DNA from: Rhodoferax sp.
GTDB lineage: Bacteria > Pseudomonadota > Gammaproteobacteria > Burkholderiales > Burkholderiaceae_C
Assembly: GCF_028688795.1 (NCBI RefSeq)
Contig: NZ_JAQTXM010000014.1
Location: 48,234 to 112,233 of the forward strand
Direction of reading: 5' to 3'
Length of the DNA: 64,000 bases
Under the pieces are notes generated by a model. It saw nothing but the letters and a program-made list of their open reading frames with translations. It was not told where the DNA came from and made no database searches. Of this stretch, positions 1 through 61,896 are shown one piece after another. Positions within the stretch are counted from its first letter, which is position 1. Each line of letters opens with the position of its first letter. The translations under genes and the position numbers were made by a program.

Positions 1-458
1 AGCAAATCGCAGTAACCGTATAAAAGGTTTATGAGCGTGTGCTTTGCTTCGCTCTCCGCTTTTGCGACCTCTGCAACTGCAGCAGCGAGCTCGGCCAGCT
101 TCAGCGCTGGTCTGCCACCTTCTTCTCTATGCTCGGCATGTTCAATTGCCATAGCTTCAGCAAATTTCATAGCGGCCAGGACGCTATAGCCTTTTTTTCC
201 CGGTGTATGACTTTTAACAGGTGCAGTTGAATCGTAGATGCCGATTTTTATCCGCTCGCTTTTATTGCTTTCGCGGGTACCAACTGTATAGCGCCAGTAC
301 AACATGACAGCGCCATCACCTTGTTTCCTTGCCTGCAACGCCCCTACAGGCTTCACCTTGTCAATGGTAAAAAACGATCCTTGCTTAAGATCGTTAAGAG
401 TCTGCCCAATCGTTTTTTTGGGTTCTAACACTTGGTCTGCTTTCGGTGAATTTTTCAT
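1..458 (-). CDS. Tyrosine (P4-type) integrase, N-terminal part only; gene continues beyond the left edge of the window
   Basis: Absent from the ORF track because no stop lies inside the window. My own translation of the minus strand from ATG 458-456 is open down to nt 1: MKNSPKADQVLEPKKTIGQTLNDLKQGSFFTIDKVKPVGALQARKQGDGAVMLYWRYTVGTRESNKSERIKIGIYDSTAPVKSHTPGKKGYSVLAAMKFAEAMAIEHAEHREEG... The layout (beta-hairpin LYWRY, IKIGIYD, then an Ala-rich helix) fits the arm-type N-terminal domain of tRNA-targeting integrases. It lies about 215 bp from a tRNA 3' fragment. Confidence 0.55.
   Translation of the reverse strand, partial: MKNSPKADQVLEPKKTIGQTLNDLKQGSFFTIDKVKPVGALQARKQGDGAVMLYWRYTVGTRESNKSERIKIGIYDSTAPVKSHTPGKKGYSVLAAMKFAEAMAIEHAEHREEGGRPALKLAELAAAVAEVAKAESEAKHTLINLLYGYCDL
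131..205 (+). repeat. Repeat copy M (probable, with a ~5-nt internal insertion), antisense inside the integrase gene
   Basis: ttcaattgcc-ATAGCTTCAGCAAA-TTTCATAGCGGCCAG-GACGCTATAGCC-tttttttcc. Read on the gene strand as ...KKGYSVLAAMKFAEAMAIEH... Confidence 0.5.
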
Positions 459-673
459 CACTGCAGTGTAGTCCGCAATTCTCTTGTTGCCAGACCGGTT
501 GCCAGACAGAGTCCGAATAGAACCGTATAAACGCAAAGTGTTGTTAAATAGTGCTATAGCGTTAGTACATTTTTAAAGTATTTTTGTGTTAAAAAACAAT
601 GACTTATGCTATTGACATCAAATCCAGCAGCTTGTAGAGTTAATTTTGCATGGTGAAAAAATGGCCATGATAG

Positions 674-721
674 GGACTCTTAATCCGTAGGTCGAGAGTT
701 CGAATCTCTCAGTTCCCACCA
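674..721 (+). tRNA. 3'-terminal 48-nt fragment of a tRNA-Lys(CUU)-type gene (anticodon loop to CCA); probable att site, not a functional tRNA
   Basis: GGACTCTTAATCCGTAGGTCGAGAGTTCGAATCTCTCAGTTCCCACCA. Parts: anticodon loop CTCTTAA (anticodon CTT), 3' anticodon-stem strand TCCGT, variable loop AGGTC, T-arm GAGAG/TTCGAAT/CTCTC, acceptor 3' strand AGTTCCC, discriminator A, CCA. The upstream 30 nt contain no matching 5' acceptor strand (GGGAACT) and no D-arm. Confidence 0.7.
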
Positions 722-744
722 AGATAAGCATTACTGCACACCAA

Positions 745-778
745 AGTCTACTATTAAAATGATAGTGGACTTTTCTTT
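745..778 (+). terminator. Rho-independent terminator downstream of the tRNA fragment
   Basis: AGTCTACTAT (745-754) / loop TAAAATG / ATAGTGGACT (762-771): 10-bp stem with one G-T pair, followed by TTTCTTT. Confidence 0.6.
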
Positions 779-876
779 GGTTTCAACATGTAGGCACGGG
801 CGCAGGCAGGGTTTAACAATTCCACCGCGTATGCACCATGTAGGCAGATCACAGCGCCAGCAGTTCAGCCCGCCCG

Positions 877-1089
877 CTACCGGGTAAGGATGGTTTCGTA
901 ACGATCACGGAAACTACTGCGCTGAAAGAAATCTATATCAGCACTTACGGCGGCATGGCAGTGCAGCACTCGCGACAACATCACGCGACTGATGCCAATG
1001 TGCTCAACGAAGGCAGTTACGCTCACGCCCAGGTCATCAAGCCAGCCGGTCAGCAGTTTGCCAGGGTATGCGGGGTTGTGCATGTTCAT
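877..1089 (-). CDS. HigA/VapI-type XRE-HTH antitoxin-like protein, short (70 aa), possibly C-terminally truncated
   Basis: MNMHNPAYPGKLLTGWLDDLGVSVTAFVEHIGISRVMLSRVLHCHAAVSADI... follows the HigA pattern (MHNPxHPGxxL...LGxSxxxxAxxxGxSRxxLSRxL). The tail after SADI does not continue the usual helix pattern, and the protein is about 25 aa shorter than typical HigA. Confidence 0.6.
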   Translation of the reverse strand: MNMHNPAYPGKLLTGWLDDLGVSVTAFVEHIGISRVMLSRVLHCHAAVSADIDFFQRSSFRDRYETILTR

Positions 1090-1094
1090 GACTG

Positions 1095-6543: not shown

Positions 6544-8706
6544 ATGACATTCAACACACGCTTGGCGCAGCGTTTCAACGCTCTATTTTTTATAGCTGCT
6601 TGCGCAATATCTACGGGGGCTATAGGCCAAAATTCCATAAATTATTTGGTCACCACCGAACAGGTGCGTGCCGAGTTGATGGCGCACGCGCCTGATGGCG
6701 TTGACCCTGGCAAAACTGTCTGGGTGGGTTTACAACTCGCTCACCAGCCACATTGGCACACTTACTGGAAAAACTCCGGCGACTCAGGCCAGCCCACCAC
6801 GCTGGAGTGGAAGTTGCCGCCCGGCGTGCTGGCCGGCGACATTGCCTGGCCGGTGCCACAAAAATTGCCAATTGGCAACCTGGCCAACTATGGTTATGAA
6901 GGCACGGTGTTGTTGCCCGTGCCACTCACCATCACGCCAGACTTCAAACCCTCCGCGTTAAGCCCCGAACTGGAAATCAAGCTGCAAGCCAGCTGGCTGG
7001 TGTGCAAACTTGAGTGTGTGCCGCAAGACGGTGAATTTGTGCTGCGGATTCCCGTGCGGAGCTCCACCGGCATCAACGGCGCACAGTTTGATGCCGCCTT
7101 CAAAGCCTCACCAAAACCACTCAAGGACGCTGGCAGCATCCAGATCAAAGACCACACCCTGTACGTCTCTGTGGCCGGCCTGCCCACCAGCCTGCAAGGT
7201 AAAATCCTGGATTTTTTCCCTGAAACCCCCGAGGTGATTGAAACCGCTGCCCAGTGGACACAAAGCTGGCAGGGCGCGGTGTGGACAGCGGCTGTGCCGA
7301 TCTCAAAGCAGCGCAGCGCCAGCCCGGAGGTGATGCCGCTGGTGCTGGCCGGCGTGGCCGGTAAAGAGCGCCTGGGCTTCACCGTACAGACCAAAGTCAG
7401 TGGCAACTGGCCGGCCATGGCTCCGCTGGGTGGCGCTGCAGCCACACCGGCTAACGTCAGCCCCTCTGCCGCCAGCGCGCCTGTCGGTGCTGCGGCAAAC
7501 CTGCCCACATCGCTCTGGCTGGCCCTGCTCGGTGCGCTCTTGGGCGGCATGATCCTAAACCTGATGCCCTGTGTGTTCCCAGTGCTGGCCATCAAGGTGG
7601 TGGGCTTTGCACGCCATGGCACCAACCAGCGCCGCCAGCGCGTGGGTGGGCTGGCCTACAGCGCGGGTGTGGTGCTGTCATTTGTCGCCTTGGGCGCGCT
7701 GATGCTTGCCTTGCGTGGCGCGGGCGAGCAACTGGGTTGGGGCTTTCAGCTGCAGTCACCCGCCGTGGTGGCGGCCCTGGCCGTGTTGTTCACCGTGATT
7801 GGGCTCAATTTGGCTGGTTTGTTTGAGTTTGGCCAATTTGTGCCCAGCAGCGTGGCCTTGCTGGAGGCAAAAAACCCGTCGGTGGATGCGTTTTTGTCGG
7901 GCATTCTGGCTGTGGTGATTGCCTCGCCCTGCACGGCGCCGTTCATGGGTGCCTCGCTTGGTTTGGCGCTGGCCTTGCCCGCCGCGCAGGCGCTGGCCAT
8001 TTTTGCAGCCATTGGTGTGGGTATGGCGCTGCCGTATCTGGCGGCCAGTTGGTCACCCGCGCTGGCCCGCCTGTTGCCGCGTCCCGGGGCCTGGATGGAC
8101 ACCTTCCGACACGCCATGGCGTTCCCGATGTTCGCCACCGTGGTCTGGTTGGTGTGGGTGTTGGGCCAGCAAAGCGGCATTGACGGGGCTACCGCCCTGC
8201 TGGCCTTGCTGCTGGCGCTGGCCCTGATGATCTGGGCGTTCGGCTTGCGCGGGCGTGGTCGCTTCTTTGTTGCTACTTTTTCAATAGCTGTTCTCGCACT
8301 ATTGACGGTTGCTATAGGCCAAAATGTCACTAAGCTTTCAGAAAATCCAGACACCGCTACCAGTACTGCACTGTGGCAACCTTGGGCGCCGGGCAAGGTG
8401 GACCAAGTGCTGGCCACGGGTGTGCCGGTGTTTGTGGATTTCACCGCCGCCTGGTGCGTGACTTGCCAGTACAACAAAAAAACCACCTTGGCCAATGCCG
8501 AGGTACTGGCCGACTTTGCCGCCAGAAAAGTCACCCTGTTGCGCGCCGACTGGACGCGCCGCGACCCGGCCATCACCGCTGCGCTGGCACAACTGGGACG
8601 CAACGGCGTGCCGGTGTATGTGCTGTACCAAACTGGCCGGGCACCCGTGGTTCTGTCCGAGATTTTGTCGGTCAGTGAAGTTCACAAGGCACTGGAAAGT
8701 TTGTAA
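6544..8706 (+). CDS. dsbD: DsbD-family protein-disulfide reductase (N-terminal periplasmic domain, membrane core, C-terminal thioredoxin)
   Basis: HWHTYWKNSGDSGQPT N-domain motif; membrane core with LMPCVFPVL and SPCTAPF cysteines; C-terminal VFVDFTAAWCVTCQ thioredoxin motif. Contains repeat copies A and B. Confidence 0.85.
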   Translation: MTFNTRLAQRFNALFFIAACAISTGAIGQNSINYLVTTEQVRAELMAHAPDGVDPGKTVWVGLQLAHQPHWHTYWKNSGDSGQPTTLEWKLPPGVLAGDIAWPVPQKLPIGNLANYGYEGTVLLPVPLTITPDFKPSALSPELEIKLQASWLVCKLECVPQDGEFVLRIPVRSSTGINGAQFDAAFKASPKPLKDAGSIQIKDHTLYVSVAGLPTSLQGKILDFFPETPEVIETAAQWTQSWQGAVWTAAVPISKQRSASPEVMPLVLAGVAGKERLGFTVQTKVSGNWPAMAPLGGAAATPANVSPSAASAPVGAAANLPTSLWLALLGALLGGMILNLMPCVFPVLAIKVVGFARHGTNQRRQRVGGLAYSAGVVLSFVALGALMLALRGAGEQLGWGFQLQSPAVVAALAVLFTVIGLNLAGLFEFGQFVPSSVALLEAKNPSVDAFLSGILAVVIASPCTAPFMGASLGLALALPAAQALAIFAAIGVGMALPYLAASWSPALARLLPRPGAWMDTFRHAMAFPMFATVVWLVWVLGQQSGIDGATALLALLLALALMIWAFGLRGRGRFFVATFSIAVLALLTVAIGQNVTKLSENPDTATSTALWQPWAPGKVDQVLATGVPVFVDFTAAWCVTCQYNKKTTLANAEVLADFAARKVTLLRADWTRRDPAITAALAQLGRNGVPVYVLYQTGRAPVVLSEILSVSEVHKALESL
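6580..6646 (+). repeat. Repeat copy A, sense, inside dsbD (signal-peptide region)
   Basis: GCTCTAttttttATAGCTGCTTGCGCaatatctacGGGGGCTATAGGCCaaaattccATAAATTatt. Peptide NALFFIAACAISTGAIGQNSINYL. Confidence 0.9.
8272..8330 (+). repeat. Repeat copy B, sense, inside dsbD (TM segment before the thioredoxin domain)
   Basis: GCTACtttttcaATAGCTGTTCTCGCactattgacGGTTGCTATAGGCCaaaatgtcac. Peptide VATFSIAVLALLTVAIGQNVT. Confidence 0.9.
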
Positions 8707-17126: not shown

Positions 17127-19310
17127 ATGACGCAAACGCCACCGCGCCTGGGCACCCTGACACCGGTGCTGGTGCATACCCCGGCCTACAGCCAAATGGC
17201 GGGTGCGCTGACCTATTTAAGCGACAGCCCCCTGCCCCCAGGCACCTTGGTGCGCGTGCCGCTGGGCCAACGCGAACTGCTGGGCGTGGTCTGGGACACC
17301 GCCCCACAAGATGGCGCAACTAGCCCGCTTGATCCGGCCAAATTGCGACCCATTGCCGCTGCGTTGGACGCCCTACCCCCTTTGAGCGCCAATTGGCGCG
17401 CCCTGATCAGCTTTGCTGCCAGCTACTACCAGCGTGCTACCGGTGAAGTGGCCTTGGCCGCCCTGCCGCCGCAGCTGCGCGACATGAGCAGTGTGCAACT
17501 GGCCCGCAAACTGAAAAAGCTGGCCAAAGCGGCGCATGTGCCAAGCAACCCAGCACACCGGCAAGACACCTCTGCTGGGCTCGCACAGGGGCTAAGTGCA
17601 GCACAAAGTGCTATTTATTCAATAGTGCTTAGCGCAGAGCAGACAGGGGCTATAAGTCAATTTCATCAAAATTCTGGGCCGTTCCTGCTGTTTGGCGCCA
17701 CCGGCAGCGGCAAAACCGAGGTGTTTATGCAATGCACGGCTGAGTTGCTGGCCAATTCGCCCAACGCCCAAGCGCTGGTGATGGTGCCCGAGATCAACCT
17801 GACGCCGCAGCTTGAAGAGCGCTTCAAGGCACGTTTTTGCGCGCTGTATGGCGAAGACACCGTGGTGTCGATGCACAGCGGCATGACCCCGGCACAGCGC
17901 TTGAACAGTTGGCTGGCGGCGCACAGCGGGGCCGCACGCATTGTGCTGGGCACCCGCATGGCGGTGTTTGCATCCATGCCACAACTCAAACTGATCATCG
18001 TCGATGAGGAGCATGACCCCAGCTACAAAAGCAACGAAGGTGCCCGCTACTCGGCGCGTGACCTGGCCATTTACCGCGCCCGCCTGGAGGGCGCCAAAGT
18101 CATGCTGGGCTCGGCCACACCCTCGCTGGAAAGCTGGCACCACAGCCGCCCAGCCGCAGAGGGCGGACGCTATATGCGGCTGGACATGCCCAGCCGCGTT
18201 GGCAGTGGCCAGTTGCCCTTGGTGCGCCGGGTTGACATGAACCACCAGGCCAAATCGTGCGTGATTTCGCCTCCCTTGCTGGCGGCGATTGCCGAGCGAA
18301 TCGCCCGCGGTGAACAAAGCATGGTGTTCCTGAACCGGCGCGGCTATGCCCCGGTGCTGCAGTGCACCGACTGCGACTGGAAAAGTGAGTGCCCCAATTG
18401 CAGCGCCTACCGCGTCTTTCACAAAATTGACCGCACACTGCGTTGTCACCACTGCGGTTTTTCTGAACGCGTGCCACGCGCCTGCCCAGCCTGCGGCAAC
18501 CCTGACATTGCGCCGCTCGGGCGCGGCACCGAGCGCCTTGAGGAACACTTGGCCGAATTGTTGACAGGGGTGCTGCGCCCCGACGGCCAGCCAGTGCGCA
18601 TTGTGCGTATTGATGCCGACACCACCCGCCTCAAAGGCGCCCTTGAATCGCAACTGGCCCAAGTGCACACGGGCGAGGTCGATGTGCTGGTGGGCACCCA
18701 AATGATCGCCAAGGGACACGACTTTCGCCGCATCACCCTGGTGGCCGCCGTCAACCCGGACAACGCCTTGTTTTCAAGCGATTTCCGGGCGCCTGAGCGC
18801 TTGTTCAGCCTGCTGATGCAGGCTGCAGGCCGGGCCGGGCGCGACTCGGCGGTGGCGGGCAGCAGTGAGATGTGGCTGCAAACCTTTCACCCCACACACC
18901 CCTTGTTTGAGGCTTTAAAAAAACATGACTACCCGGCCTTTGCGGCCTCGCAGCTCAAGGAGCGCCAGCAAGCGGCCATGCCACCGTTCAGCTTTCAGGC
19001 GCTGGTGCGCGCCGAGGCACGCACACAAGAAATTGCCCAAGGTTTTTTAAACCTGGCCAGCCAGGCAGCCGCTCAGCAAAGCGACACCGCAGCCCTGCTG
19101 GCCCACCTGACGCTCTATCCGGCTGTGCCCATGAGTATTGCCCGCATTGCCAACATCGAGCGTGCTCAGATGCTGGTGGAAAGCCCGTCACGCGCCGCGC
19201 TGCAGCGGTTTTTGACGGCTTGGCAAGGCGTGTTGCACAGCACCCGCCAATTGCCCGATTGCAAGGGTGTGATGCGCTGGGCGATTGATGTGGACCCGCT
19301 CAACATCTGA
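17127..19310 (+). CDS. priA: Primosomal replication-restart helicase PriA
   Basis: Walker A GATGSGKTEV, DEEH box, zinc-binding CxxC clusters (CTDCDWKSECPNCSAY...CHHCGFSERVPRACPACG), 727 aa. Contains repeat copy C. Confidence 0.95.
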   Translation: MTQTPPRLGTLTPVLVHTPAYSQMAGALTYLSDSPLPPGTLVRVPLGQRELLGVVWDTAPQDGATSPLDPAKLRPIAAALDALPPLSANWRALISFAASYYQRATGEVALAALPPQLRDMSSVQLARKLKKLAKAAHVPSNPAHRQDTSAGLAQGLSAAQSAIYSIVLSAEQTGAISQFHQNSGPFLLFGATGSGKTEVFMQCTAELLANSPNAQALVMVPEINLTPQLEERFKARFCALYGEDTVVSMHSGMTPAQRLNSWLAAHSGAARIVLGTRMAVFASMPQLKLIIVDEEHDPSYKSNEGARYSARDLAIYRARLEGAKVMLGSATPSLESWHHSRPAAEGGRYMRLDMPSRVGSGQLPLVRRVDMNHQAKSCVISPPLLAAIAERIARGEQSMVFLNRRGYAPVLQCTDCDWKSECPNCSAYRVFHKIDRTLRCHHCGFSERVPRACPACGNPDIAPLGRGTERLEEHLAELLTGVLRPDGQPVRIVRIDADTTRLKGALESQLAQVHTGEVDVLVGTQMIAKGHDFRRITLVAAVNPDNALFSSDFRAPERLFSLLMQAAGRAGRDSAVAGSSEMWLQTFHPTHPLFEALKKHDYPAFAASQLKERQQAAMPPFSFQALVRAEARTQEIAQGFLNLASQAAAQQSDTAALLAHLTLYPAVPMSIARIANIERAQMLVESPSRAALQRFLTAWQGVLHSTRQLPDCKGVMRWAIDVDPLNI
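17610..17676 (+). repeat. Repeat copy C, sense, inside priA
   Basis: GCTAtttattcaATAGTGCTTAGCGCagagcagacAGGGGCTATAAGTCaatttcatcaaaattct. Peptide SAIYSIVLSAEQTGAISQFHQNS. Confidence 0.85.
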
Positions 19311-22646: not shown

Positions 22647-22671
22647 ACAAGCAACTACAGTCACCTCCAAT

Positions 22672-22739
22672 GCTACTTAATAAATAGCTACTTGCGCTCG
22701 CACTTCTTGGGCTAGAAGCCGTTTTTTCATACAAAGAAC
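22672..22739 (+). repeat. Repeat copy D, antisense, overlapping the 3' end and stop codon of the PIN gene
   Basis: GCTACttaataaATAGCTACTTGCGCtcgcacttcttGGGCTAGAAGCCgttttttcatacaaagaac. On the gene strand: KKRLLAQEVRAQVAIY-stop. Confidence 0.85.
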
Positions 22740-23120
22740 AGCGTTATCCTTGCTCAGCAGCAAAGCCTGGTGCTTGACGGCGAGGTCGATGAACTTCTGG
22801 TCATCGGGGTCTTTGCAGGTCAGGGTGGCTTTGGCGGCGGTGTCTACCAGGGTGGCCTGTCCGTCAAATTGCGCCAGCACATGCGCGGCGCTGACCTGGT
22901 AGAACGCCATGCGCAGCACGATTTTGGGGTAGGTCAGCACCCGCTCCAGCTCGTCGCGCATGGTTTTGGTGGCGATCCACTGCAACTGGTCTGAGGCCAG
23001 CGCCTGTTTCAAAGGAACGGTGGCCGGGTCACCAAACACAAAGGCATCCAGCACGATGTTGGTGTCAAGGACAACCGGGGCTGCGACTTGGGGGTCAGAG
23101 CGCACGGCCATGACGCTCAC
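22677..23120 (-). CDS. PIN-domain protein (stand-alone toxin-type PIN family)
   Basis: VVLDTNIVLDAFVFGD... (PIN Asp), ...FIDLAVKHQALLLSKDNAV. The last 16 codons and the stop lie in repeat copy D. Start is GTG 23120 (4-nt overlap with the upstream stop) or ATG 23111. Confidence 0.75.
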   Translation of the reverse strand: MSVMAVRSDPQVAAPVVLDTNIVLDAFVFGDPATVPLKQALASDQLQWIATKTMRDELERVLTYPKIVLRMAFYQVSAAHVLAQFDGQATLVDTAAKATLTCKDPDDQKFIDLAVKHQALLLSKDNAVLCMKKRLLAQEVRAQVAIY

Positions 23121-24505
23121 GATGGCTCAGGCCCGGATTTTCCAGACCCGCCTTTCTCAGCCATTTTTCCGGCCACCATGTCAAAGCGGAACAGGCGGCA
23201 TTCGATCGGACCGTTCCACATCGGCACGCGGCGGGTTTCTTTGAGACGCATCTTGCCGGGCAGCTTTAGGTCGGGCGTGAGGATCCAGGCGGTCCAGCCG
23301 GAATAGTTTTTCTTCCAGTGGCTGGCCAGTTGGTTGAAAAACTCGCCGCCGTTGTCTGTTTGCGGCAATTCGCGGGCGCCAAAACGACCCTGCTGTGCGC
23401 TCGCTGCACTGTCGTCAGTGCTGTCATCTTCGTAGCTGGCAGCCAAAAGCCGTGCTTCGCCCGCCGGTGCGCCGCGCTGTGGTGCGCGCTCAAAGCGGCC
23501 GGTACGGGCCACGCCGGCCACGTCAATGCGCTCGCCATAAGGCGGGTTCAGCACCATCACGCCACCGCCGGTCTCACTCACGTCAACCGGTGGCATGCGC
23601 TGCAAGGCGTCGCCGCCACGAAACTCGATCACGTCGGCCACGCCCGCGCGTTCGGCATTGCGCTGTGCAAAGTCCACCATGCGGTGCGCCACGTCGCTTG
23701 CGAATATGATGGGTTTTTGGCCTGCAGGCCTTACCACCTCAGCGTCAGCAGCTTCCTTCTTAATAGCATCCCAGTCGGCCCGGCGAAACGGCACATACTT
23801 CTCAAAAGCAAAGCGCCGGCGGCTACCGGCGGCAATGTTGCAAGCCATTTGCGCGGCCTCAATGACGATGGTGCCACTGCCGCAACAGGGGTCGTACAGT
23901 GGCAACAGGTCGTCTTCACCTTCAAACCAGCCGGTGGCAGCCAGCATGGCAGCGGCCAGGGTTTCCTTCAGGGGCGCATCGCCCTTGTCTTCGCGCCAAC
24001 CGCGCTTGAACAATGGCTCGCCCGAGGTGTCGATGTAGATCGAGCAACTGTCGGTGGTCAGGTGGGTGTAAATGCGCACATCGGGCCACTGGGTGTTGAC
24101 ATCCGGACGCACGCCATTGGCGACCGCGCGAAAGCGATCACACACCGCGTCCTTGACTTTGAGGGCGGCAAAATTCAACGAAGTCAGCGGGCAATGCTGC
24201 GCCGTGATTTCGACCTTGATGCTTTCACGCGGGGTGAACCAACGCTCCCAAGGCACCTCGCTGGCAGCGCGGTACAAGTCCTGCTCGGACCGGTATTCGG
24301 TGTAGCTGAGCAGAACCAGCACGCGCTGGGCCAGACGGCTGTAGAGGTTGAGCAGCATGACCTGCGCAAACGAGGTGCGCACCGCCACGCCGCCGCGTTG
24401 CTTGGTGACGCAGCCGGGCGGCAGGCCTGTGATGCGCAAAATCTCAGGGGCGAGGTAGTCCTCAACGCCTGCGGCGCAGGGTAAGAAAAGTTGGAGTTGG
24501 TTCAA
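23117..24505 (-). CDS. THUMP-domain class I SAM-dependent RNA methyltransferase (RlmL-like)
   Basis: LFLPCAAGVEDYLAPE... THUMP-like N-terminus; motif I PLYDPCCGSGTIVIEAA; motif IV VLNPPYGERI. Proposed start is TTG 24505-24503 preceded by AAGGAA, overlapping the rpoN stop. The longer ORF-track start (24577) would overlap rpoN by 76 nt. Confidence 0.75.
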   Translation of the reverse strand: MNQLQLFLPCAAGVEDYLAPEILRITGLPPGCVTKQRGGVAVRTSFAQVMLLNLYSRLAQRVLVLLSYTEYRSEQDLYRAASEVPWERWFTPRESIKVEITAQHCPLTSLNFAALKVKDAVCDRFRAVANGVRPDVNTQWPDVRIYTHLTTDSCSIYIDTSGEPLFKRGWREDKGDAPLKETLAAAMLAATGWFEGEDDLLPLYDPCCGSGTIVIEAAQMACNIAAGSRRRFAFEKYVPFRRADWDAIKKEAADAEVVRPAGQKPIIFASDVAHRMVDFAQRNAERAGVADVIEFRGGDALQRMPPVDVSETGGGVMVLNPPYGERIDVAGVARTGRFERAPQRGAPAGEARLLAASYEDDSTDDSAASAQQGRFGARELPQTDNGGEFFNQLASHWKKNYSGWTAWILTPDLKLPGKMRLKETRRVPMWNGPIECRLFRFDMVAGKMAEKGGSGKSGPEPS

Positions 24506-38994: not shown

Positions 38995-39001
38995 TTAATT
39001 T

Positions 39002-39068
39002 ACTACTAAATACATAGCTTCTAGCGCTTTGTTCATAAGGGCTAGAGGCTATTTTTATATATAAATAT
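39002..39068 (+). repeat. Repeat copy F, the only fully intergenic copy (glcB 3' flank); best-preserved hairpin
   Basis: ACTACtaaatacATAGCTTCTAGCGCtttgttcataaGGGCTAGAGGCTATttttatatataaatatc. Confidence 0.9.
39014..39056 (+). terminator. Intrinsic-terminator-like hairpin formed by repeat copy F, 20 nt after the glcB stop
   Basis: ATAGCTTCTAGCGC (39014-39027) / loop TTTGTTCATAA / GGGCTAGAGGCTAT (39039-39052): 12 Watson-Crick and 1 G-U of 14 positions, followed by TTTT. Confidence 0.5.
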
Positions 39069-39072
39069 CACA

Positions 39073-47032: not shown

Positions 47033-48367
47033 TCAAGCTCGGACTTCACCCTCGCCCAGCACCACGTACTTGAGCGAGGTCAGGCCCTCAATACCGACCG
47101 GGCCGCGGGCGTGAAACTTGTCGGTAGAAATGCCGATTTCGGCCCCCAGGCCGTACTCGAAGCCATCGGCAAATCGGGTGCTGGTGTTGACCATGACACT
47201 GGCCGAATCGACCTCCCGCAAAAACTGTTGCGCATGCATGTGGTCACGCGTCAGGATGGCATCGGTGTGGTGGCTGGAATACTGGTTGATGTGCGCAATG
47301 GCTTCATCCACGCCGGCCACCACTTTGATGCTGATGATCGGCGCCAGGTATTCCTCAAACCAGTCCGCTTCTTGCGCCAGCACCAGCACTGGCGGCTTGA
47401 TTACTACATTTTCAATAGCTAATAGCGCTTTATCTACGGGGGCTAGAGGCCAATTTTCCTTAAGGATTTCCAGTGTCTCGGCATCACAACGCATCTCGAC
47501 ACCTTTGTCAGCATAGATTCGCCCAATCAGCGGCAAAAAATCTGCGGCCACGCCGCGCGCCACCAACAGGCTTTCGGTCGCGTTGCAGGGGCTGTATTTG
47601 CTGGTCTTGGCGTTGTCGGCCACCTTGACAGCCATGTCGATGTCGCACGGGTCGTCCACATAGGTGTGGCAATTGCCGTCCAGATGCTTGATGACCGGCA
47701 CCTTGGCATCACGGCTGATGCGCTCAATCAGTCCCTTGCCGCCGCGCGGAATGATCACATCCACATACTGCGGCATGGTGATGAGCTGGCCCACCACCTC
47801 ACGGTCGGTGGTTTGGACCAGTTGCACGGCGTTGGCTGGCAAACCTGATGCGGTGAGTGCCTGCTGCACCAGTTTGGCCAGCGCCTTGTTGGAGTCAATC
47901 GCTTCTGAGCCACCGCGCAGAATGCAGGCATTGCCGCTTTTGATGCTCAAGGACGCAGCCTCGATGGTGACGTTGGGTCGGCTCTCAAAGATCATGCCAA
48001 ACACGCCAATCGGCACGCGCATTTGCCCCACGCGGATGCCGCTGGGTTGCTGGCGCAGCGCGGTGATCTCGCCAATGATGTCGGCCATGGCGGCCAGTTG
48101 CTCGCAGCCCTGGGCACAGGTTTCGATCACTTTGGGCGTCAGCTTCAGGCGGTCCACCATTGGAGCGGCCAAGCCAGCCGCGATGGCGCGCTCAATGTCT
48201 TTGGCGTTGTCAAGCTGCAGCGCGTCCACGTTGGCACGCAGCAACTTTGCCAGGGTGCGCAAAGCTACATTTTTAGTAGCTGCTTGCGCCTTAGCCATAA
48301 GGGCTGAGGCCTGTTTTGCCTGCAAACCAAGGGTTTGGGCGTAGTCGGTGATGTTGAGTGCGTTCAT
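47033..48367 (-). CDS. proA: Gamma-glutamyl phosphate reductase
   Basis: Start [21 protein letters not shown] (ATG 48367). ...IFESRPNVT..., ...ILRGGSEA..., ...[10 protein letters not shown]..., ...HTDAILT..., ...[17 protein letters not shown]... Contains repeat copies G and H. Confidence 0.95.
47403..47470 (+). repeat. Repeat copy G, antisense, inside proA (apparent 17-codon insertion)
   Basis: ACTACattttcaATAGCTAATAGCGCtttatctacGGGGGCTAGAGGCCaattttccttaaggatttc. Gene strand peptide [19 protein letters not shown]. Confidence 0.9.
48254..48312 (+). repeat. Repeat copy H, antisense, inside the conserved N-terminal helix of proA (no length change)
   Basis: GCTACatttttaGTAGCTGCTTGCGCcttagccataaGGGCTGAGGCCtgttttgcc. 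About 78 % identical to copy F by hand alignment, same frame as copy G. Peptide [18 protein letters not shown]. Confidence 0.75.
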
Positions 48368-50655: not shown

Positions 50656-50692
50656 GCTACCGGCCGAAAAAATTAAACCATCAGGACAGACT

Positions 50693-51937
50693 ATGAAGTT
50701 GACAAATGCCAGGGCGCGCAGGCGCATACACAGTGCAACACCGCCAACCAAAGTGACAATAATCACTCTATATTTGATAGCTGCTTGCACAATATCCACG
50801 GGCGCTACAGCCCATAATCTTATAAATTCTACAGCAGATGACAAGACCTCGGGTTGGCAGCGATGCAGCAGTCTGGGTGCCGACAGTGCGGCCCGTCTGA
50901 GCTGTTTTGACGCGTGGGCCGCACAACAAAGTGCGTCGATGCGCTTGGCATCTGAGCCAGCCTCGGCCAACAACCTGACCGCCGATGTTGGGCCACTCGC
51001 CGCCCCAACACCAGCCAAGGCACCGGCCGTGGCACCCGTGGTCATCACCATGACCGCACCCGAAGCGCACAACTGCAAGAACCCCATTTTTTCCGAACTC
51101 TCTCGCTTTTGGGAGCTGGAAGCCGGCAGCGACTGCGGCACCTTTGGCATTCGGGGCTACCACCCCATAGCTTTAAGCTGGATTGGTTCGGACAGTGTCA
51201 ACGAGCAGCCCACCTCACCCACGCCGGCCAACAACGCCACAAGCGCCCAGGCGTTCAAAACCACCGAAATGCGCATTGGTGTGTCGGTGCGCACCAAAAT
51301 TGCCCAGGGGCTGCTGACGCAAGACCAGCCACTCCAGCGCGATTCCTTGTGGTTTGGTTACTCGCAGCAGTCCAACTGGCAACTCTTCAGTGGCGATTTG
51401 TCACGCCCGTTTCGCACCACCGACCACGAGCCTGAGCTGATCTACATCTACCCGACCGATCTGGCGCTGCCCCTGGGTTGGCGCCTGCGCTACAGCGGCA
51501 TCAGCTTTAACCACCAGTCCAACGGCCAGCCCCTGCCGCTGTCCAGAAGCTGGAACCGCACGATTTTGATGGCCGGCATGGAAAAGGGAAACACCTTTCA
51601 TGTGCAGGGCAAGCTGTGGTACCGCACGCCTGATGGCGACGGCACCGATGACAACCCCGACATTGCCAACCTGATTGGCCGCGCCGAAGTGATGGGCTAC
51701 TGGAACGTCAACCCCGACAACGCGCTGAGCCTGACACTGCGCCACTCCTTGCGCGCCAATGCCAACGGTTCAACGCGCGTGGAATGGCTTAAGAAACTGG
51801 GCAGCAGCGGTTTTGTTGGCAGCAACAGCGGCCTGCGGCTTCACACGCAGCTGTTCTCAGGTTACGGCGACTCGCTGATTGACTACAACCGCCGACGCAC
51901 GGTGCTCAGTGTGGGTTTGAGTTTGGTGGATTGGTAA
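50693..51937 (+). CDS. pldA: Outer-membrane phospholipase A (OMPLA)
   Basis: Start MKLTNARARRR (ATG 50693). ...EPELIYIYP..., catalytic FNHQSNG, ...SWNR..., C-terminal beta-barrel ending ...GLSLVDW. Signal peptide encoded by repeat copy J. Confidence 0.85.
   Translation: MKLTNARARRRIHSATPPTKVTIITLYLIAACTISTGATAHNLINSTADDKTSGWQRCSSLGADSAARLSCFDAWAAQQSASMRLASEPASANNLTADVGPLAAPTPAKAPAVAPVVITMTAPEAHNCKNPIFSELSRFWELEAGSDCGTFGIRGYHPIALSWIGSDSVNEQPTSPTPANNATSAQAFKTTEMRIGVSVRTKIAQGLLTQDQPLQRDSLWFGYSQQSNWQLFSGDLSRPFRTTDHEPELIYIYPTDLALPLGWRLRYSGISFNHQSNGQPLPLSRSWNRTILMAGMEKGNTFHVQGKLWYRTPDGDGTDDNPDIANLIGRAEVMGYWNVNPDNALSLTLRHSLRANANGSTRVEWLKKLGSSGFVGSNSGLRLHTQLFSGYGDSLIDYNRRRTVLSVGLSLVDW
50766..50830 (+). 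repeat. Repeat copy J, sense, inside pldA (signal-peptide region)
   Basis: CTCTAtatttgATAGCTGCTTGCACaatatccacGGGCGCTACAGCCCataatcttATAAATTct. Peptide ITLYLIAACTISTGATAHNLINS. Confidence 0.9.
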
Positions 51938-57143: not shown

Positions 57144-59270
57144 CTACTGACCCAGTGGCCTGTTAGCCGAAGCCGGTGTGTCCGCGTTTCCCTTGATGTT
57201 GCCATTGGCAGGCAAGGCTGGGCCTGGCTTCAACTGAGCCGCAGGCAACACCGGCGCCTCGTTGATCGGCACCAGGCGGCTGGGCTCGGGCTGTGCGTCT
57301 TGCATGCCGCTTCGCATCAAGTCGTAGCGGTCCATGGAAAGCTTGTCGGTGGCGCGCGCGTCACGCACCACCACCGGGCGCAGGAACACCATCAGGTTGG
57401 TTTTTTTGCGGCTGCGGGTTTCGTTCTTGAACAAATTTCCAAACAGTGGCACGTCGCCCAGGCCGGGCACTTTTTCCTGGTTGCCAGCGTATTCGTCTTG
57501 CAGCAAGCCACCCAGCACCACGATAGCGCCATCTTCTACCAACACGTTGGACTCGATCGTGCGCTTGTTGGTGGTGGGGCCGTTGGGGGCATTCACGCTG
57601 GAGGCCAGCACATTGCTCACCTCTTGGTAAATGGCCATTTTGACGGTGCCGTTTTCGCTGATTTGCGGTTTGACCTTGAGCGTCAGACCAACGTCTTTAC
57701 GTTCAATGGTTTGAAACGGGTTGACGGTGCCAGTGCTGCTGCCAGTGTTGGTGAACTGGCCGGTGACGAAGGGCACGTTTTGGCCAATGACGATCTTGGC
57801 CTCTTCGTTGTCGAGCGTGAGCAAATTGGGCGTTGAGAGCACATTGCCAGAGCCAGAGTCTTCCAGAAAACGCGCCAGCAGGCCAAGCACATAGACGCCA
57901 TTGGTTTGCTGCACGGCACCAAAATTGAGTCCGCGCGCTGGCGCCACCCCGCCCGTGGCCGCCCCCGTGGCCAGACTGATGATGTTTTTGCCGCCGGTGC
58001 TGAAGTTGGTGCCCAGCAGGCCAATCACGCCATCACCGGCCTTGCCCAACGGTCCTTGCCACTGGATGCCAAACTCTGCCGCCTTCTCCACACTGACCTC
58101 AGCAATCAGGCTCTCCACAAACACCTGGGCACGCCGGGCGTCGAGCTTGTCAATGACCGCGCGAAGCTGGCGGTATTGCGGGTCGGGCGCGGTGATGATG
58201 AGCGAATTGGTGGCCACGTCGGCCTGAATTTGCCCGCCTGTGGTGGCGGCTTGCGCCGTGGCACCGGCAGCACCGCCCGGTGTTGCCGTGGCCGCAGCAG
58301 GTGCCGCACTGCCACTCAAGGCGGCGCGCAACGTGGTCGCCAGCTTGGTGGCATCGGCGTTTTTGAGGTACACCACATGCACGTTGCCCAATGCGTCGTT
58401 GTTGCTGCCTGCGTCCGGCTGGTCGAGCTTTTGAACGAGTGAGCGCACCAGCGCCAGTTGCGCCCCATTGGCAGCGCGCGCTATCAGTGCGTTGGAGCGG
58501 GGTTCGGCCACCAGCGTGGTCTTGAACGAGGTGTCGGCTGCACCGGCCGGGGCAGCGGCGGTGCTGGCACCCAGCAGCCTGAGTACCAGCGGCGCCAAAT
58601 CAGAGGCAATGGCGTGTTGCAGCGGAATCACCTCCACGTCGGTGGCATTGGCCACATCCATCGCCGCAATGATGCGCGACAGGCGGCGCAGGTTGTCACC
58701 GTAGTCAGTGATCACCAGGGAGTTGTTGCCAGGGTTGGCATTGATGGTGTTGTTGGGACTGATCAAGGGGCGCAGCACCGGCACCAGGTTATTGGCCGAC
58801 TCAAAATTGAGCTTGAAGATTTGCGTGGCAATCTGGTTGCTTCCAGGCAGCGTGCCGCTGTCGCCCTCTTGAATCGTCACGCCTGCACTTTGCAGCTTGG
58901 CCTCGGCCTCGGGCACCACCTTGTAAAGCCCGCCGGACTCCACCAGCGTGTAGCCCTGCAGGCGTAGCGCCGACACAAACTGGCCCAGGGCGGCCGCGCG
59001 GCTCACCGGCTTGTCGGTGACCAGAGTCAGCGTGCCCTTGACACGCGGGTCGACCACCACGTTGCGCCCGGTGATGCTGGCAAAAGTGCGCGCCACAGCT
59101 TCGATTTCAGCCCCCTGAAAATTCAGCGTGACGCCTTCACTGGCCTTGCCGGCAGCATTCGACTGCGCCCAAGAATTTATAGAAAAAAGGCCTGTAGCCC
59201 CCGTCAATAAAGCGCAAACAGCTATTGAAACAATAGTATGTTTAGAAGAAACAAAAATATGTTGTGGCAT
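57144..59270 (-). CDS. gspD: Type II secretion secretin GspD
   Basis: Start [11 protein letters not shown] (ATG 59270). N0-N3 domains, secretin domain (...[15 protein letters not shown]...). Signal peptide encoded by repeat copy K. Confidence 0.95.
59172..59237 (-). repeat. Repeat copy K, sense, inside gspD (signal-peptide region)
   Basis: Gene strand: ACTAttgtttcaATAGCTGTTTGCGCtttattgacGGGGGCTACAGGCCttttttctATAAATTct. Peptide [22 protein letters not shown]. Confidence 0.9.
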
Positions 59271-59274
59271 GTGC

Positions 59275-60111
59275 TTACCCAAGCTTGATGATGGACCGCG
59301 CGCCCTCGCGCCGCCCAATGATGTTCAATAAATTTGACAGTGCCGCCTGATGCTCTGGCGTGCTGCTGGCCTCGCCCACAAAGCGCAGCTTGCCGCCTAC
59401 CCACTCACCACGACCGGAGAGCTGCAAACTGCCCTGCAAGGTGGCCAGCGACAGTTCAGGTGCTGCGCCCCCGGTCAAAGTAAAGCGGTAGCTACCCATG
59501 GGGCGCAGGGTGGACAAGCGCGATGAAATGTCTTGCGCGTCGAGCTGCGCTTGCCCACTGAGCTGCAGCCGCCCAGCTGCCCAGGTCAGGGTAAGCCCCT
59601 CGGTGCTCAAGCCCAGTTGGCCTTGCGGCGCAATCGTATTAAAAGGCGTGCCCAAGCCAGCAAGCATCTGCGCCGGCCAGACCGATGGGCTGTCGGACAC
59701 CCGCAACTGCGCGCCGTTCCACCTCGGTGCCAGAAAAAACCCCCAGGACTGTGCCAGGCAACAACTGGCTTCCAGGCGCACGCCCAACCCGGTCAGGCCG
59801 GGTTGCAGCTGCCAGCCCAGCCGCGAGGGCAATTGGGTCGCGGCCACACTGCCAACGCCACCCGTGAGCGTGAGCTGCGCACTGCCTGACCAGACCGTGC
59901 CACGGGCATCCTGTAACAACACCTGACCAGCACTGGCCTGGCGCACCACTGCGGCGAGCCAGCGCGCTGGCGCAAACACCAGCACGCTCAGCAGCGCCCC
60001 CACCAGCAAACCACTCAGGCCCCAGACCCAAGGCGTTTGCGCACTGGTGCGCGCAGCCACGCCTGAGCGACGCAACGCACTGACACGTGAAGGCCGGGCA
60101 AACAAGCGCAT
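59275..60111 (-). CDS. gspN: Type II secretion protein GspN
   Basis: Start MRLFARPSRV (ATG 60111). One N-terminal TM, then ...VLLQDARGTVWSGSAQL...L.WQL... GspN pattern. Position between gspM and gspD. Confidence 0.8.
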   Translation of the reverse strand: MRLFARPSRVSALRRSGVAARTSAQTPWVWGLSGLLVGALLSVLVFAPARWLAAVVRQASAGQVLLQDARGTVWSGSAQLTLTGGVGSVAATQLPSRLGWQLQPGLTGLGVRLEASCCLAQSWGFFLAPRWNGAQLRVSDSPSVWPAQMLAGLGTPFNTIAPQGQLGLSTEGLTLTWAAGRLQLSGQAQLDAQDISSRLSTLRPMGSYRFTLTGGAAPELSLATLQGSLQLSGRGEWVGGKLRFVGEASSTPEHQAALSNLLNIIGRREGARSIIKLG

Positions 60112-60136
60112 GGGCACAGTCACAGCACCAGGTCCA

Positions 60137-60616
60137 TCATGATGCAGGCAGGTACAACACCAGCGTGCCATCCCAGGTGCCGGCGGCATTGCGCGTCAGG
60201 TGCGCCTCAGACGGCACGCTGTGGGCGTTTTGTCGGGCCGCAGCCAGCCACTGCGCCAGCGCGTCAGGGGCCACACCCTTGAGTGTGACCGTGACACGCT
60301 CCACCTGCACCACCATTTGTGCACTGGTGCCGAGCGGTTTCAATGACGCTTCGAGCGCCCGGCGCGCGTCATCAGCACGCATCACCGGTTGCGCCCGCAA
60401 AGCCAGCGCCTGGGCTTGCAGTCGCAGCATCTGCTGGTTTTGGGCGTCCAGCGCCAAATGCTGTTGCGGCGCGGTCTTGAGCACTTTCAAGGCCGGGGCC
60501 ACAGCCACCCACCACAGCAGCGCCAGTACCACCACGCCCAAGGCCAGCAAAAGCAGCCGCTGCTCACGCGGCGAAACCTCTCGCCAGCGACGCTGCAAGT
60601 CGGTCAAGGCGCTCAT
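60137..60616 (-). CDS. gspM: Type II secretion protein GspM
   Basis: Start MSALTDLQRRWREVSPREQRLLLLALGVVVLALLWW (ATG 60616), about 160 aa, single TM. Confidence 0.85.
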   Translation of the reverse strand: MSALTDLQRRWREVSPREQRLLLLALGVVVLALLWWVAVAPALKVLKTAPQQHLALDAQNQQMLRLQAQALALRAQPVMRADDARRALEASLKPLGTSAQMVVQVERVTVTLKGVAPDALAQWLAAARQNAHSVPSEAHLTRNAAGTWDGTLVLYLPAS

Positions 60617-61896
60617 GGTTGGCCTCCCGCAGCCAGGAGCCATTGGTCGCCCTGCTCACTTGCGCGCAAGCCTGCCGCCTTTAGTTTGGCAATGACGGCG
60701 GCTGGGTCGCCCACCTCAGGGCCTTTCAAACGCAACTCATTTGATGCAAATTCAATAGCTACTACCGCATATTCTGCAGGGGCTACAGCCGAAAATGATG
60801 CCAACATACTCTCCAAATCAGTGCCAGCGGCAGCACCACTGGCGCGCTGCAAGGCGGCCACTTCACGCGCCATCTGCAAGGGTGCATCGACCACCACAGG
60901 CACTTTGGGAAAGGTCTCTAGCAGCACCGCGCGCACCACTTGACGTTTGGCATTCAACGTGGCTTGCTCACGCAGAGCCCAGGCGTTCAGGCCGACCAGG
61001 TTCACCAGCACGCCAGCCACCAACGCGCCACGCGCCACGCGCCACTGCGGCGCACGCAAAAAACTGGCAAACGCCTGGGTCACACGGGCCCAACGCCGGT
61101 CACGGTTGGCGTGAGCCAGGTCAAACTGGGCCAGATCCCACGGCGACTGCGCTGCTTGCAGCAAACGCTCGGTGTGCTGCAACAAGGTGACCGGGCGCTT
61201 GAACCAGGCTTCGGCGATGGCGGCCACGGCGGGCTCGGCCACCACTTGCGGCCAGGTTGGCTCGGCGTCTTGGGGCAACGTTTCACCCAACCACAGCAGT
61301 GCCGGCGCGGCCAGGGGTCCAACCAGTACGCCACCGAATGCCGGGCTGTCGGTGGCCGCTCCAGCGACTGCAGGCAAGCGCTGCAAGCCGGCCACACGCG
61401 GGTGATCGGCATCGCCGGTGACCACCACGGTACCCCGCAAACCATGTGGTGTGAACTCGGGCACGATACGCGCCACTTCATGCCCGGCTTGGGCCAGGGC
61501 ACTCAATGCGGCTTTGAGCCAAGCCCGGTCGCAGGCAGCCACCCAGACCAGCGCATCCGCTGTGGCCTGCGGCTGCAAGGCCAGATGCAATTGTGCCGGG
61601 TCGTCGAGTAACTGGTCTTCCAGCACACCCTCCAGAATGCTACGCAGCCGACTGCGGGCACGCTCACCGGCGAGGGTCCGCGGCACGCTGCCTGCGGGCA
61701 GCTTCACCTGGTGCCAGGACAGTGCCTGCGCAGGCACCAGCGCCACCACTTCGTCGTGCGCAGCGGGCAACAAGGCCAACGGCACGCTGGCGTGCGCGTG
61801 CACGGTGAGGCCATCGGTGCTGAGCACGTAGTCAAACAATGCAGCCGCATCTGCGCCGGCCGGGGGTAAGGTGATGATCAGGGTCGTCATGGGCAA
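60613..61896 (-). CDS. gspL: Type II secretion protein GspL
   Basis: 427 aa; cytoplasmic actin-like domain, mid TM (VAGVLVNLVGLNAW), periplasmic C-domain. 4-nt overlap with gspM. Contains repeat copy L. Confidence 0.85.
   Translation of the reverse strand: MPMTTLIITLPPAGADAAALFDYVLSTDGLTVHAHASVPLALLPAAHDEVVALVPAQALSWHQVKLPAGSVPRTLAGERARSRLRSILEGVLEDQLLDDPAQLHLALQPQATADALVWVAACDRAWLKAALSALAQAGHEVARIVPEFTPHGLRGTVVVTGDADHPRVAGLQRLPAVAGAATDSPAFGGVLVGPLAAPALLWLGETLPQDAEPTWPQVVAEPAVAAIAEAWFKRPVTLLQHTERLLQAAQSPWDLAQFDLAHANRDRRWARVTQAFASFLRAPQWRVARGALVAGVLVNLVGLNAWALREQATLNAKRQVVRAVLLETFPKVPVVVDAPLQMAREVAALQRASGAAAGTDLESMLASFSAVAPAEYAVVAIEFASNELRLKGPEVGDPAAVIAKLKAAGLRASEQGDQWLLAAGGQP
60745..60800 (+). 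repeat. Repeat copy L, antisense, inside gspL (periplasmic C-domain)
   Basis: tgcaaattcaATAGCTACTACCGCatattctgcAGGGGCTACAGCCgaaaatgatg. Gene strand peptide SFSAVAPAEYAVVAIEFAS. Confidence 0.85.

Follow-up and report, generated by a model that had tools for sequence, protein, structure and literature searches.

The stretch of DNA analysed here, hereafter referred to as the window, comprises 64,000 nucleotides from a contig of Rhodoferax sp. (NCBI RefSeq assembly GCF_028688795.1, contig NZ_JAQTXM010000014.1, positions 48,234 to 112,233) with a G+C content of 59%; a 100%-identical ProA places it in a metagenome-assembled genome of Rhodoferax sp. Genes identified there by Pfam matches as coding for DsbD, PriA, a PIN protein, RpoN, a YdjC-like protein, ProA, PldA, GspD, and GspL carry copies of a short dispersed DNA unit, which consists of two conserved boxes at a fixed distance and is read in frame as a part of these unrelated proteins. 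An initial annotation of the window had listed 13 copies, 12 of which were recovered at the same places, with E values from 1e-15 to 1e-6, by a hidden Markov model (HMM) built from 139 copies of other genomes only, without any window sequence. The scores in the window are bimodal, with 12 strong matches followed by noise, and the pattern ATAGCTNNTNGCGC-N11-GGGCTANAGSC, allowing up to three mismatches, yields 10 matches in the window versus 0.00 expected. The previously estimated frequency of about one copy per 5 kb thus holds with 12 copies per 64 kb. The remaining member of the list, copy M (131-205), is not supported as a member of the family, as indicated by an E value above 10 and by two TAGC cores lying 5 bp wider apart than in the other copies. 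Its supposed host gene, an open reading frame (ORF) at 3-572 on the minus strand, shows no Pfam match to an integrase or to anything else, whereas the other proposed host genes were all correctly named, including dsbD and proA with two copies each. A possible decayed thirteenth copy with borderline E values of 0.003 and 0.017 lies at 23703..23754 (minus strand) in a gene for a THUMP/RlmL-like methyltransferase (23117-24577, minus strand), and beyond this candidate only noise is found. The methyltransferase gene adjoins the PIN gene that carries one of the established copies (copy D).

Copies of the unit in the window and their anatomy

Seven copies are oriented with their host genes, and all of them are read in phase 0. 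Copy A (6578..6649, plus strand) codes for amino acids 13-36 of DsbD (ORF 6544-8706) and forms the hydrophobic core of its signal peptide, ALFFIAACAISTGAIGQN. Copy B (8269..8335, plus strand) codes for amino acids 577-600 of the same protein, between RGRGR and the periplasmic thioredoxin domain, where it probably represents the last transmembrane helix, as judged from the topology of DsbD; the available PDB matches of DsbD cover soluble domains only. Copy C (17606..17680, plus strand) provides amino acids 162-186 of PriA (17127-19310), directly ahead of the Walker A motif. The most diverged copy, copy R (25789..25856, minus strand; E 1e-6), codes for amino acids 117-140 of RpoN (24502-26202, minus strand), within the variable acidic stretch that separates the activator-interacting domain from the core-binding domain, and copy E (33099..33167, minus strand) for amino acids 262-284 of a YdjC-family protein (32865-33947, minus strand), for which the PDB alignment with a solved homologue stops short of the copy region. 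The last two sense copies lie at the 5' ends of their host genes: copy J (50762..50833, plus strand) encodes the signal-peptide core TLYLIAACTISTGATA of PldA (ORF 50531-51937), and copy K (59166..59240, minus strand) the signal peptide of the secretin GspD (57144-59318, minus strand).

Four copies are antisense to their host genes and again share one phase, instead of the five that had been assumed when a strict frame rule was proposed for both orientations. Copy D (22669..22740, plus strand) overlaps the 3' end of the PIN-domain gene (22677-23120, minus strand) and gives its last approximately 22 codons together with the stop codon. Copies G (47400..47466, plus strand) and H (48262..48329, plus strand) are both located in proA (47033-48367/48445, minus strand) and read in phase 1; copy G codes for 18 additional amino acids in a loop, while copy H, which combines a near-perfect box 1 with a box 2 containing a 1-nt deletion, encodes the native N-terminal helix at unchanged length. 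Copy L (60739..60807, plus strand), likewise in phase 1, codes for amino acids 363-384 in the periplasmic domain of GspL (60613-61896, minus strand). All genic copies of the window therefore lie in open frames, copy D providing the stop of its gene, which agrees with the earlier statement that no frame is interrupted. The sole intergenic copy, copy F (38999..39070, plus strand), starts 5-8 nt past the stop codon of the gene for malate synthase G (36769-38994) and consists of a 12-bp stem followed by a T-run, resembling a terminator.

An alignment of 205 copies on the HMM register gives the consensus RCTAY-N7-ATAGCTGCTTGCGC-N11-GGGCTASAGGCC-WWTTT and a unit length of about 55-70 bp. The two boxes of 14 and 12 bp are always separated by exactly 11 bp and span 37 bp with an information content of approximately 40 bits, out of approximately 72 bits for the whole unit, both values being inflated by ascertainment. 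Conservation begins approximately 3 nt ahead of RCTAY, which itself is conserved in just 60-90% of the copies, and stops approximately 66 nt further on, while the flanking DNA carries no information. The boxes sit between AT-rich flanks (RCTAY-N7 on the 5' side and WWTTT on the 3' side), in line with the AT-enriched patches noticed before. The description of the unit as an imperfect palindrome, on the other hand, proved to be weak. The only consensus structure obtained with RNAalifold from 72 intergenic and 63 genic copies on both strands is an invariant 5-bp pairing of TAGCT with GGCTA without covariation, and no covariation was detected either by RNAalifold or by manual pair counts that would keep the apparent 5' stem GCTAT..ATAGC. 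In comparisons of single copies with shuffled sequences, only copy F folds significantly (z -5.8), as expected from the earlier remark that the intergenic copy has the best hairpin; copy K reaches z -3.5, and the other genic window copies are at z about 0.

Terminal inverted repeats are not apparent, since the best match between the ends of the consensus is 8/12 and lies in low-complexity AT sequence. As already suspected, there is no consistent target-site duplication: no direct repeat of 2-8 bp occurs at any boundary of the 72 intergenic copies beyond the level of permutations, and the flanks of the aligned copies do not contain a target motif. Isolated boxes outside the copies are not found above chance level (18 matches versus approximately 15 expected for box 1 with up to two mismatches, and 15 versus approximately 10 for box 2 with up to one mismatch), which indicates that copies arise as whole units. 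The unit is thus defined by its sequence and not by a hairpin. No Rfam match was obtained at gathering thresholds in the window or at E≤1 in four further loci with 16 copies, and together with the absence of any description of the boxes in the searched literature this agrees with the unit not having been recognized before as a named family. Readings of the boxes as sigma-70, sigma-54, IHF, or DnaA-box sites were dropped on inspection by eye because of misfits in spacing or consensus. Box 2 with its sequence GGGGCTATAG resembles bacterial tRNA-Ala at the 5' end, and box 1 with TAGCTGC resembles the 3' acceptor strand of this tRNA, a likeness that may be fortuitous; a scan of the window did not reveal any tRNA or tmRNA genes.

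Distribution, location, and reading frame

The distribution of the unit was assessed by a scan for the exact two-box pattern in the genomes of 185,579 species, each represented once, which matched at least 118 stretches; these stretches, plus a set of proA loci from metagenomes, are referred to by L-numbers. Among the matches listed, the named records are all from Comamonadaceae, with the genera Polaromonas, Rhodoferax, Giesbergeria, Simplicispira, Acidovorax, Paenacidovorax, Diaphorobacter, Comamonas, Variovorax, Ca. Aalborgicola, and Ca. Egaibacter represented, and the rest are unclassified metagenome-assembled genomes (MAGs) of Burkholderiales, Betaproteobacteria, or Pseudomonadota. For contigs of Comamonadaceae, the unit is a family-specific marker. 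None of 50,697 phage records and only two of 72,556 plasmid records contained a match, the latter being a chromosome-like linear contig of R. antarcticus and a 305-kb Comamonadaceae replicon. Three other Rhodoferax loci contain 10 copies per 55 kb, and secondary copies occur in the scan loci at approximately one per 10 kb.

As judged from 233 copies, 49% are intergenic, 28% are internal to genes, 17% lie across the 3' end of a gene, and 6% at the extreme 5' end of an open frame, which amounts to 34% inside ORFs in total. The copies overlapping 3' ends are mostly antisense (33 of 40). The secondary copies, which are free of ascertainment, are about half intergenic, whereas 18 of 22 copies in the window and the other Rhodoferax loci are genic; the proposal that almost all copies reside in genes therefore describes a feature of this lineage or window and does not extend to the whole family. 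Intergenic copies are flanked by convergent gene pairs more often than by divergent ones (24 versus 11). In three Rhodoferax loci (L021:1782-1860, L078:981-1060, and L114:972-1050), an intergenic copy stops 8 nt short of a conserved ATG (ATGTCCAATACC...), which places the GAGG of box 2 at the position of a Shine-Dalgarno sequence.

The non-random use of reading frames was fully borne out by the larger set, in which 38 of 39 sense copies are read in one phase (p 2e-17) and 32 of 38 antisense copies in one phase (p 1e-10). The sense frame gives a hydrophobic helix of the type xIAACAxxTGAxGQ and the antisense frame an Ala-rich helix of the type PLAxxxxAQAAIxxxV, and N-terminal placement is found for 11 of 39 sense copies versus 2 of 38 antisense copies (p=0.013). 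No orientation bias in the manner of a KOPS- or Chi-like polarity was detected relative to the GC skew (105:128), nor was there any relative to flanking genes (33:31).

These values also bear on the reading of the unit as an RNA-level element, i.e., a small RNA, a cis-regulatory RNA, or a terminator family. The hairpin and T-run of copy F right after glcB and the excess of convergent pairs around intergenic copies are in its favor, as are compensatory changes in an orthologue of copy F (L120:10206-10271), where the stem has changed from TTCTAGC/GCTAGAG to TGGTAGC/GCTTCCA and box 2 has been lost. From these sequences, copy F appears to evolve as a terminator hairpin instead of a two-box unit. 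For the family as a whole, such a reading is highly improbable and largely refuted by the lack of conserved structure or covariation on either strand, by the lack of Rfam matches even at E≤1, and by the equal use of both orientations, with 39 sense and 38 antisense copies in host genes and 33 versus 31 copies in the two orientations when compared with the flanking genes.

A dense cluster of copies was observed in a MAG of Giesbergeria sp. (L051:1-5800, JBHCAP010000060.1), where seven near-identical copies are arranged in one orientation within 6 kb. The cassettes of this array code for toxin-antitoxin systems (BrnT/BrnA, a CopG antitoxin, an HI1420-type antidote, DUF4160/DUF2442, and DUF1902), and a copy of the unit follows each cassette or pair. 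A further copy of this variant, with the same spacer, lies on another contig of the genome, which thus shows recent copying. A 26-bp perfect palindrome of REP-like appearance, GTCGGGTTAGCGCAGCGTAACCCGAC, adjoins several of these copies (near 2930-2975 and 5755-5800, and at the copy at 4363); joined to a 3' segment that these sites have in common, AACCAAAGTGGGTGGCC, it makes up a composite repeat of larger size. Because of the arrangement of toxin-antitoxin cassettes, integron attC sites were considered and rejected, as the inter-cassette regions fold with z values of only -0.3 to +0.8 versus shuffles and contain none of the R''/R' boxes (RYYYAAC...GTTRRRY) that go with the bottom-strand hairpin of attC sites. 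A Y1 transposase of the IS200/IS605-like RAYT type was not present among the window ORFs checked, which conforms to the earlier observation that the window codes for no mobilizing enzyme. Positions 1-4000 of the window have a G+C content of 54% versus 59% and contain ORFs that lack Pfam matches, along with a gene for ankyrin repeats (1729-2283).

Conservation of the boxes and fate of the unit in host proteins

The copies are old. In an all-against-all comparison of the loci, a copy is retained in 72 of 73 orthologous comparisons, including genera with only 66-70% identity of the flanking DNA, and the single exception is a decayed copy. Orthologous copies of A, B, C, F, G, H, and J of the window were found elsewhere, one locus (L111) holding those of A, B, and C together. 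The presence of the unit at the same protein positions in other genera had been named in advance as a sign of ordinary conserved coding sequence; since the unit is also present between genes and, in either orientation, in genes that are unrelated to each other, it is not ordinary coding sequence.

Among orthologues in the scan loci, the boxes are near-invariant while spacer and flanks diverge, although ascertainment contributes to this picture. An unbiased test was therefore based on 28 orthologues of the proA copy G which had been retrieved via the protein and not via the motif. Their mean pairwise identities are 0.74 and 0.77 for the two boxes, compared with 0.47 for the spacer and 0.40-0.54 for the adjacent coding DNA. 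For the Leu of box 2, 20 of 24 orthologues use CTA, which makes up 0.5% of the Leu codons elsewhere in proA, and for the Ala of box 1, 22 of 24 use GCT, which makes up 5.5% of the Ala codons. The intergenic copy shared by L021, L078, and L114 has likewise kept its boxes, with a left flank that cannot be aligned between the genomes. The boxes are thus conserved as DNA, at rare synonymous codons and against codon bias, and since this conservation extends between genera, the unit is not merely decaying selfish DNA.

Outside of the boxes, the copies follow genus-specific consensus sequences, for example ..CCGTATTTATT-GGGC in Polaromonas and ..ATTATCTACGG-GGGC in Rhodoferax, with genera assigned as labelled in the sequence records. 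The non-box columns alone suffice to assign 98 of 118 Polaromonas and Rhodoferax copies to the right genus when whole orthology groups are left out, and at the two orthologous sites that both genera have in common, each of the six copies matches the dialect of the genus it comes from, with log-odds of +/-9 to 12. The DsbD orthologues retrieved are all Rhodoferax-like and therefore could not widen this comparison. A spacer that is only weakly constrained at each site, yet genus-specific across sites, points to re-copying, homogenization, or co-evolution with a reader protein, and passive decay does not explain the dialects.

The conserved boxes at fixed spacing, their positional conservation, their AT-rich flanks, and their restriction to the chromosome might also be accounted for if the unit were an architectural or regulatory site under host selection alone, bound for example by a nucleoid-associated protein or a topoisomerase; such a site would spread only by ordinary mutation and duplication and have no copying process of its own. 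We regard this as quite unlikely, since a sequence of approximately 40 bits cannot arise repeatedly via point mutation and no half sites are present. The common ancestry of spacers and flanks within genera, the near-identical recent array in Giesbergeria, and the lack of any positional logic relative to genes or replication speak against it as well.

A different kind of evidence comes from the effect of the unit on the length of its host proteins. The proA test set consisted of 80 orthologous loci from metagenomes, with 30 orthologues that carry copy G and 52 that lack it. Two conserved motifs enclosing the site are separated by 41 amino acids with copy G and by 23 without it, so copy G is a real net insertion of 18 amino acids into a loop, and it corresponds to a gap against solved ProA structures. 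In a quick neighbor-joining tree, three loci without copy G (L136, L164, and L146) fall among relatives which carry it, and the loop of L136 is still shorter (19 amino acids) and is followed by the C-terminal context of the G type (PAQES), which suggests that a deletion has secondarily removed the insertion. All other testable internal copies behave differently. Copy H aligns without gaps to Burkholderia ProA (4ghk), as does a copy in lpxB (L014, an exact pattern match) to LpxB of E. coli (5w8n), a copy in a trmH-like gene adds 3 amino acids versus solved homologues (7qiu and 1ipa), and copy C in priA is 3 amino acids shorter than the corresponding region of K. pneumoniae PriA (4nl4). A net insertion is therefore absent in four of five testable cases, and with signal peptides of normal length in addition, simple insertion appears as the exception. 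The analogy to the in-frame insertions of Rickettsia, which had been drawn in the initial annotation, is valid for copy G of proA and fails for the colinear copies in proA (H), priA, lpxB, and the trmH-like gene.

In DsbD, GspD, and PldA, the hydrophobic core of the signal peptide is formed by copies A, K, and J, respectively, all with normal peptide lengths, and further signal-peptide copies were found in L026, L040, L104, and L113. The PldA orthologue of L121 starts with MYRYTLFLIAIYAFCSSAIA|QN. The suggestion that the unit has been exapted in places was sound, as copies serve as signal peptides in DsbD, GspD, and PldA and as a probable transmembrane helix in DsbD (copy B). In public annotations, DsbD is listed with 675 amino acids (P0121) instead of about 720 (start region at window positions 6544-6680), and PldA of L121 (start region at L121:6242-6520) with 295 amino acids; both proteins lack their signal peptides because the annotated starts lie downstream of the unit. 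The AT-rich unit seems to mislead the prediction of start codons, a practical point to be considered for dsbD and pldA, which gene callers truncate at this position.

The evidence on insertion and conservation can be weighed against the possibility that the copies are passive relics of a REP- or MITE-like palindromic element (for repetitive extragenic palindromes and miniature inverted-repeat transposable elements), which inserted at random and is tolerated in coding sequence as in Rickettsia. The clean in-frame insertion of copy G, the occurrence of copies as whole units, their enrichment between genes, where roughly 12% of the DNA holds 49% of the copies, and near the 3' ends of genes, a frame rule largely as expected from filtering by stop codons, and the recent local amplification in Giesbergeria all fit such an origin. 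It nevertheless seems unlikely, because no palindrome, terminal inverted repeat, or target-site duplication was recognized, four of the five testable internal copies show no net insertion, and the boxes, unlike the drifting spacer, have persisted both at rare synonymous codons and in orthologous intergenic copies. Genus dialects at orthologous sites, retention at the same sites across genera, and the near absence of matches from phage and plasmid records are further arguments against it. Tolerated insertion thus explains copy G and the frame filter, but not the colinear copies, the conservation of the boxes, or the dialects, and what stands of the former view of a (formerly) mobile REP/MITE-like element are the dispersed homologous units and the insertion in proA.

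Relation to known repeats and a possible mode of maintenance

The known system most similar at first sight is that of the Rickettsia palindromic elements (RPEs), palindromes of 100-150 bp which are reported as net insertions and are not known outside Rickettsia. Like these, the unit is a short AT-rich dispersed repeat which occurs between genes and, read in frame, within housekeeping genes of unrelated function, its copies are common to related species, and copy G of proA is a true in-frame insertion in a surface loop. It differs from them in the lack of a conserved hairpin, in the colinearity of most testable internal copies with the native protein, in its DNA-conserved boxes and genus dialects, and in its occurrence in a free-living, GC-rich betaproteobacterial family. 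With a host among the Comamonadaceae and not the Rickettsiales, sequence homology to the RPE families would not be expected.

REPs are extragenic palindromes of 20-40 bp with a conserved terminal tetranucleotide (GTAG/CGTC), whose persistence and homogeneity have been attributed to a domesticated trans-acting protein (PMC3733652). The unit shares with REP/BIME and REPIN-RAYT systems the high copy number, the specificity for the chromosome and for a lineage, and the enrichment near gene 3' ends, but is non-palindromic, bipartite, 55-70 bp long, and genic or across a gene end in about half of its copies. As for MITEs such as Correia/NEMIS and ERIC, it is a small non-autonomous dispersed repeat with copies affecting gene ends or acting in a terminator-like manner (D and F), and it differs from them by the lack of terminal inverted repeats, target-site duplications, or a target motif and by its rarity in plasmid records (two matches in 72,556). 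The PARCELs are similar in being translated repeat DNA that contributes helices and membrane-targeted segments; they are tandem intragenic repeats of 25 residues with dyad symmetry which spread horizontally among unrelated microbes, whereas the copies described here are single, dispersed, and vertically inherited in one family.

Exact-box and keyword searches of the literature gave no description of the unit, and the only intragenic betaproteobacterial repeat found was BRE, the "Beta-proteobacterial repeat element" of Hot et al. 2011. This repeat is known from Bordetella and from Comamonadaceae (Polaromonas JS666, Rhodoferax, Acidovorax, and Delftia), where it is mostly intergenic with some intragenic copies; it is approximately 90 bp long, has a G+C content of 69%, often occurs in tandem as a variable number of tandem repeats, and is exemplified by TTTTTTTTTGGCCGCGGGCCGCCCAAGGCAAAAAAGCCCC... 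(PMC3110155). Identity with BRE was rejected, since the BRE sequences from the supplement of that paper share no boxes with the unit (PMC3110155), the copies of which are single and AT-rich instead of tandem and GC-rich. The unit fails defining tests of membership among RPEs, REPs, MITEs, DNA uptake sequences (DUS) or uptake signal sequences (USS), attC sites, and BREs, and is an undescribed variant of REP/RPE-like small dispersed repeats.

Another reading starts from the DUS of Neisseriaceae and the USS of Pasteurellaceae: a signal for "self" DNA which became fixed by preferential uptake and recombination, at any site that tolerates it, would account for several properties of the unit. The equal use of both strands without replication-skew bias, the core-chromosome bias seen in the virtual absence from phage and plasmid records, the colinearity of copies in coding sequence with preferred frames, the family-wide occurrence with genus dialects, and the conserved positions are all shared features, and about half of the copies affect ORFs, as compared with 34.5-65% of USS and DUS located in ORFs (PMC2817400). 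Moreover, Verminephrobacter eiseniae, a member of the Comamonadaceae, is naturally transformable through type IV pili, with competition data that hint at sequence specificity and no uptake sequence known (PMC4212676). Even so, an uptake sequence is an unlikely explanation. Known cores are short (9-12 bp) and occur at about one per kb, while the unit is 3-5 times longer, bipartite, and 5-10 times less dense (one per 5-10 kb), with approximately 40 bits over 37 bp, several times the length of any known uptake sequence. It is also born whole, without the excess of partial or half sites expected from gradual accumulation in situ, and its spacers look inherited from genus-specific masters instead of selected.

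The explanation we prefer is that of an old chromosome-borne unit which is the target of a trans-acting protein and undergoes active maintenance or re-copying, and we assign it a probability of roughly 50%. A reader protein is implied by the conservation of the boxes across genera against codon bias, in combination with lineage-specific dialects. Such a sequence-specific protein would bind the unit, and through it whole units would be created and refreshed by a conversion-type process of copy-and-replace rather than by cut-and-paste insertion, after which the boxes would be kept as DNA. Genic copies would survive only in the one stop-free frame of each orientation that yields a harmless helix. 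The sense helix may then have been recruited for the signal-peptide cores of DsbD, GspD, and PldA and for one of the transmembrane helices in DsbD, while the antisense helix may either add a surface loop, as with copy G of proA, or replace a native helix, as with copy H of proA and in LpxB of related loci, and an intergenic copy could drift into a terminator hairpin, as proposed for copy F. The recognizing protein, its copying by replacement, and a possible advantage for the cell are all deduced from patterns in the DNA, and maintenance may be due to a dedicated conversion- or transposition-like enzyme, to a host-selected binding site, or to an uptake-type drive.

Several points weigh against this explanation. 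No candidate for the protein partner has been identified, and close relatives did not reveal any presence/absence polymorphism in which the junction of a fresh copy-and-replace event would be visible. Colinearity could in principle also result from an insertion followed by a compensating deletion, and copy H, whose peptide is identical in all orthologues while the element-likeness of its DNA is graded from 0 to 42 bits, could reflect slow gain or decay in situ. The cross-genus test of the dialects comprises two sites. The data are limited to the window, the scan loci, and the metagenomic proA loci, and genes in the scan loci were called with a home-made codon-usage caller trained on Pfam-validated genes of the window. 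Finally, the conservation of the boxes in the scan loci is partly built in, because these loci were ascertained with the exact two-box pattern, which leaves the proA set and the window as the main sources of unbiased evidence.

A tentative extension of the preferred explanation, possible though far from established, is that the unit serves as a genome-wide mark of "self" which is read by a dedicated protein and either written over the DNA by copy-and-replace or fixed via sequence-specific uptake. If this were true, the unit would either provide the uptake specificity that is missing so far for naturally transformable Comamonadaceae or serve a short-patch conversion system not known before as its substrate, and in both cases a DNA signal of 57 bp would be superimposed on essential proteins, supplying them with ready-made signal peptides. 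In-frame repeat DNA in housekeeping genes, so far a near-unique curiosity of Rickettsia, now extends to a large, free-living, and environmentally dominant family, where many copies go beyond the Rickettsia case by replacing native protein segments instead of adding to them. One of the frames has repeatedly become a signal peptide or transmembrane helix, which represents a concrete route from repeat DNA to functional parts of proteins.

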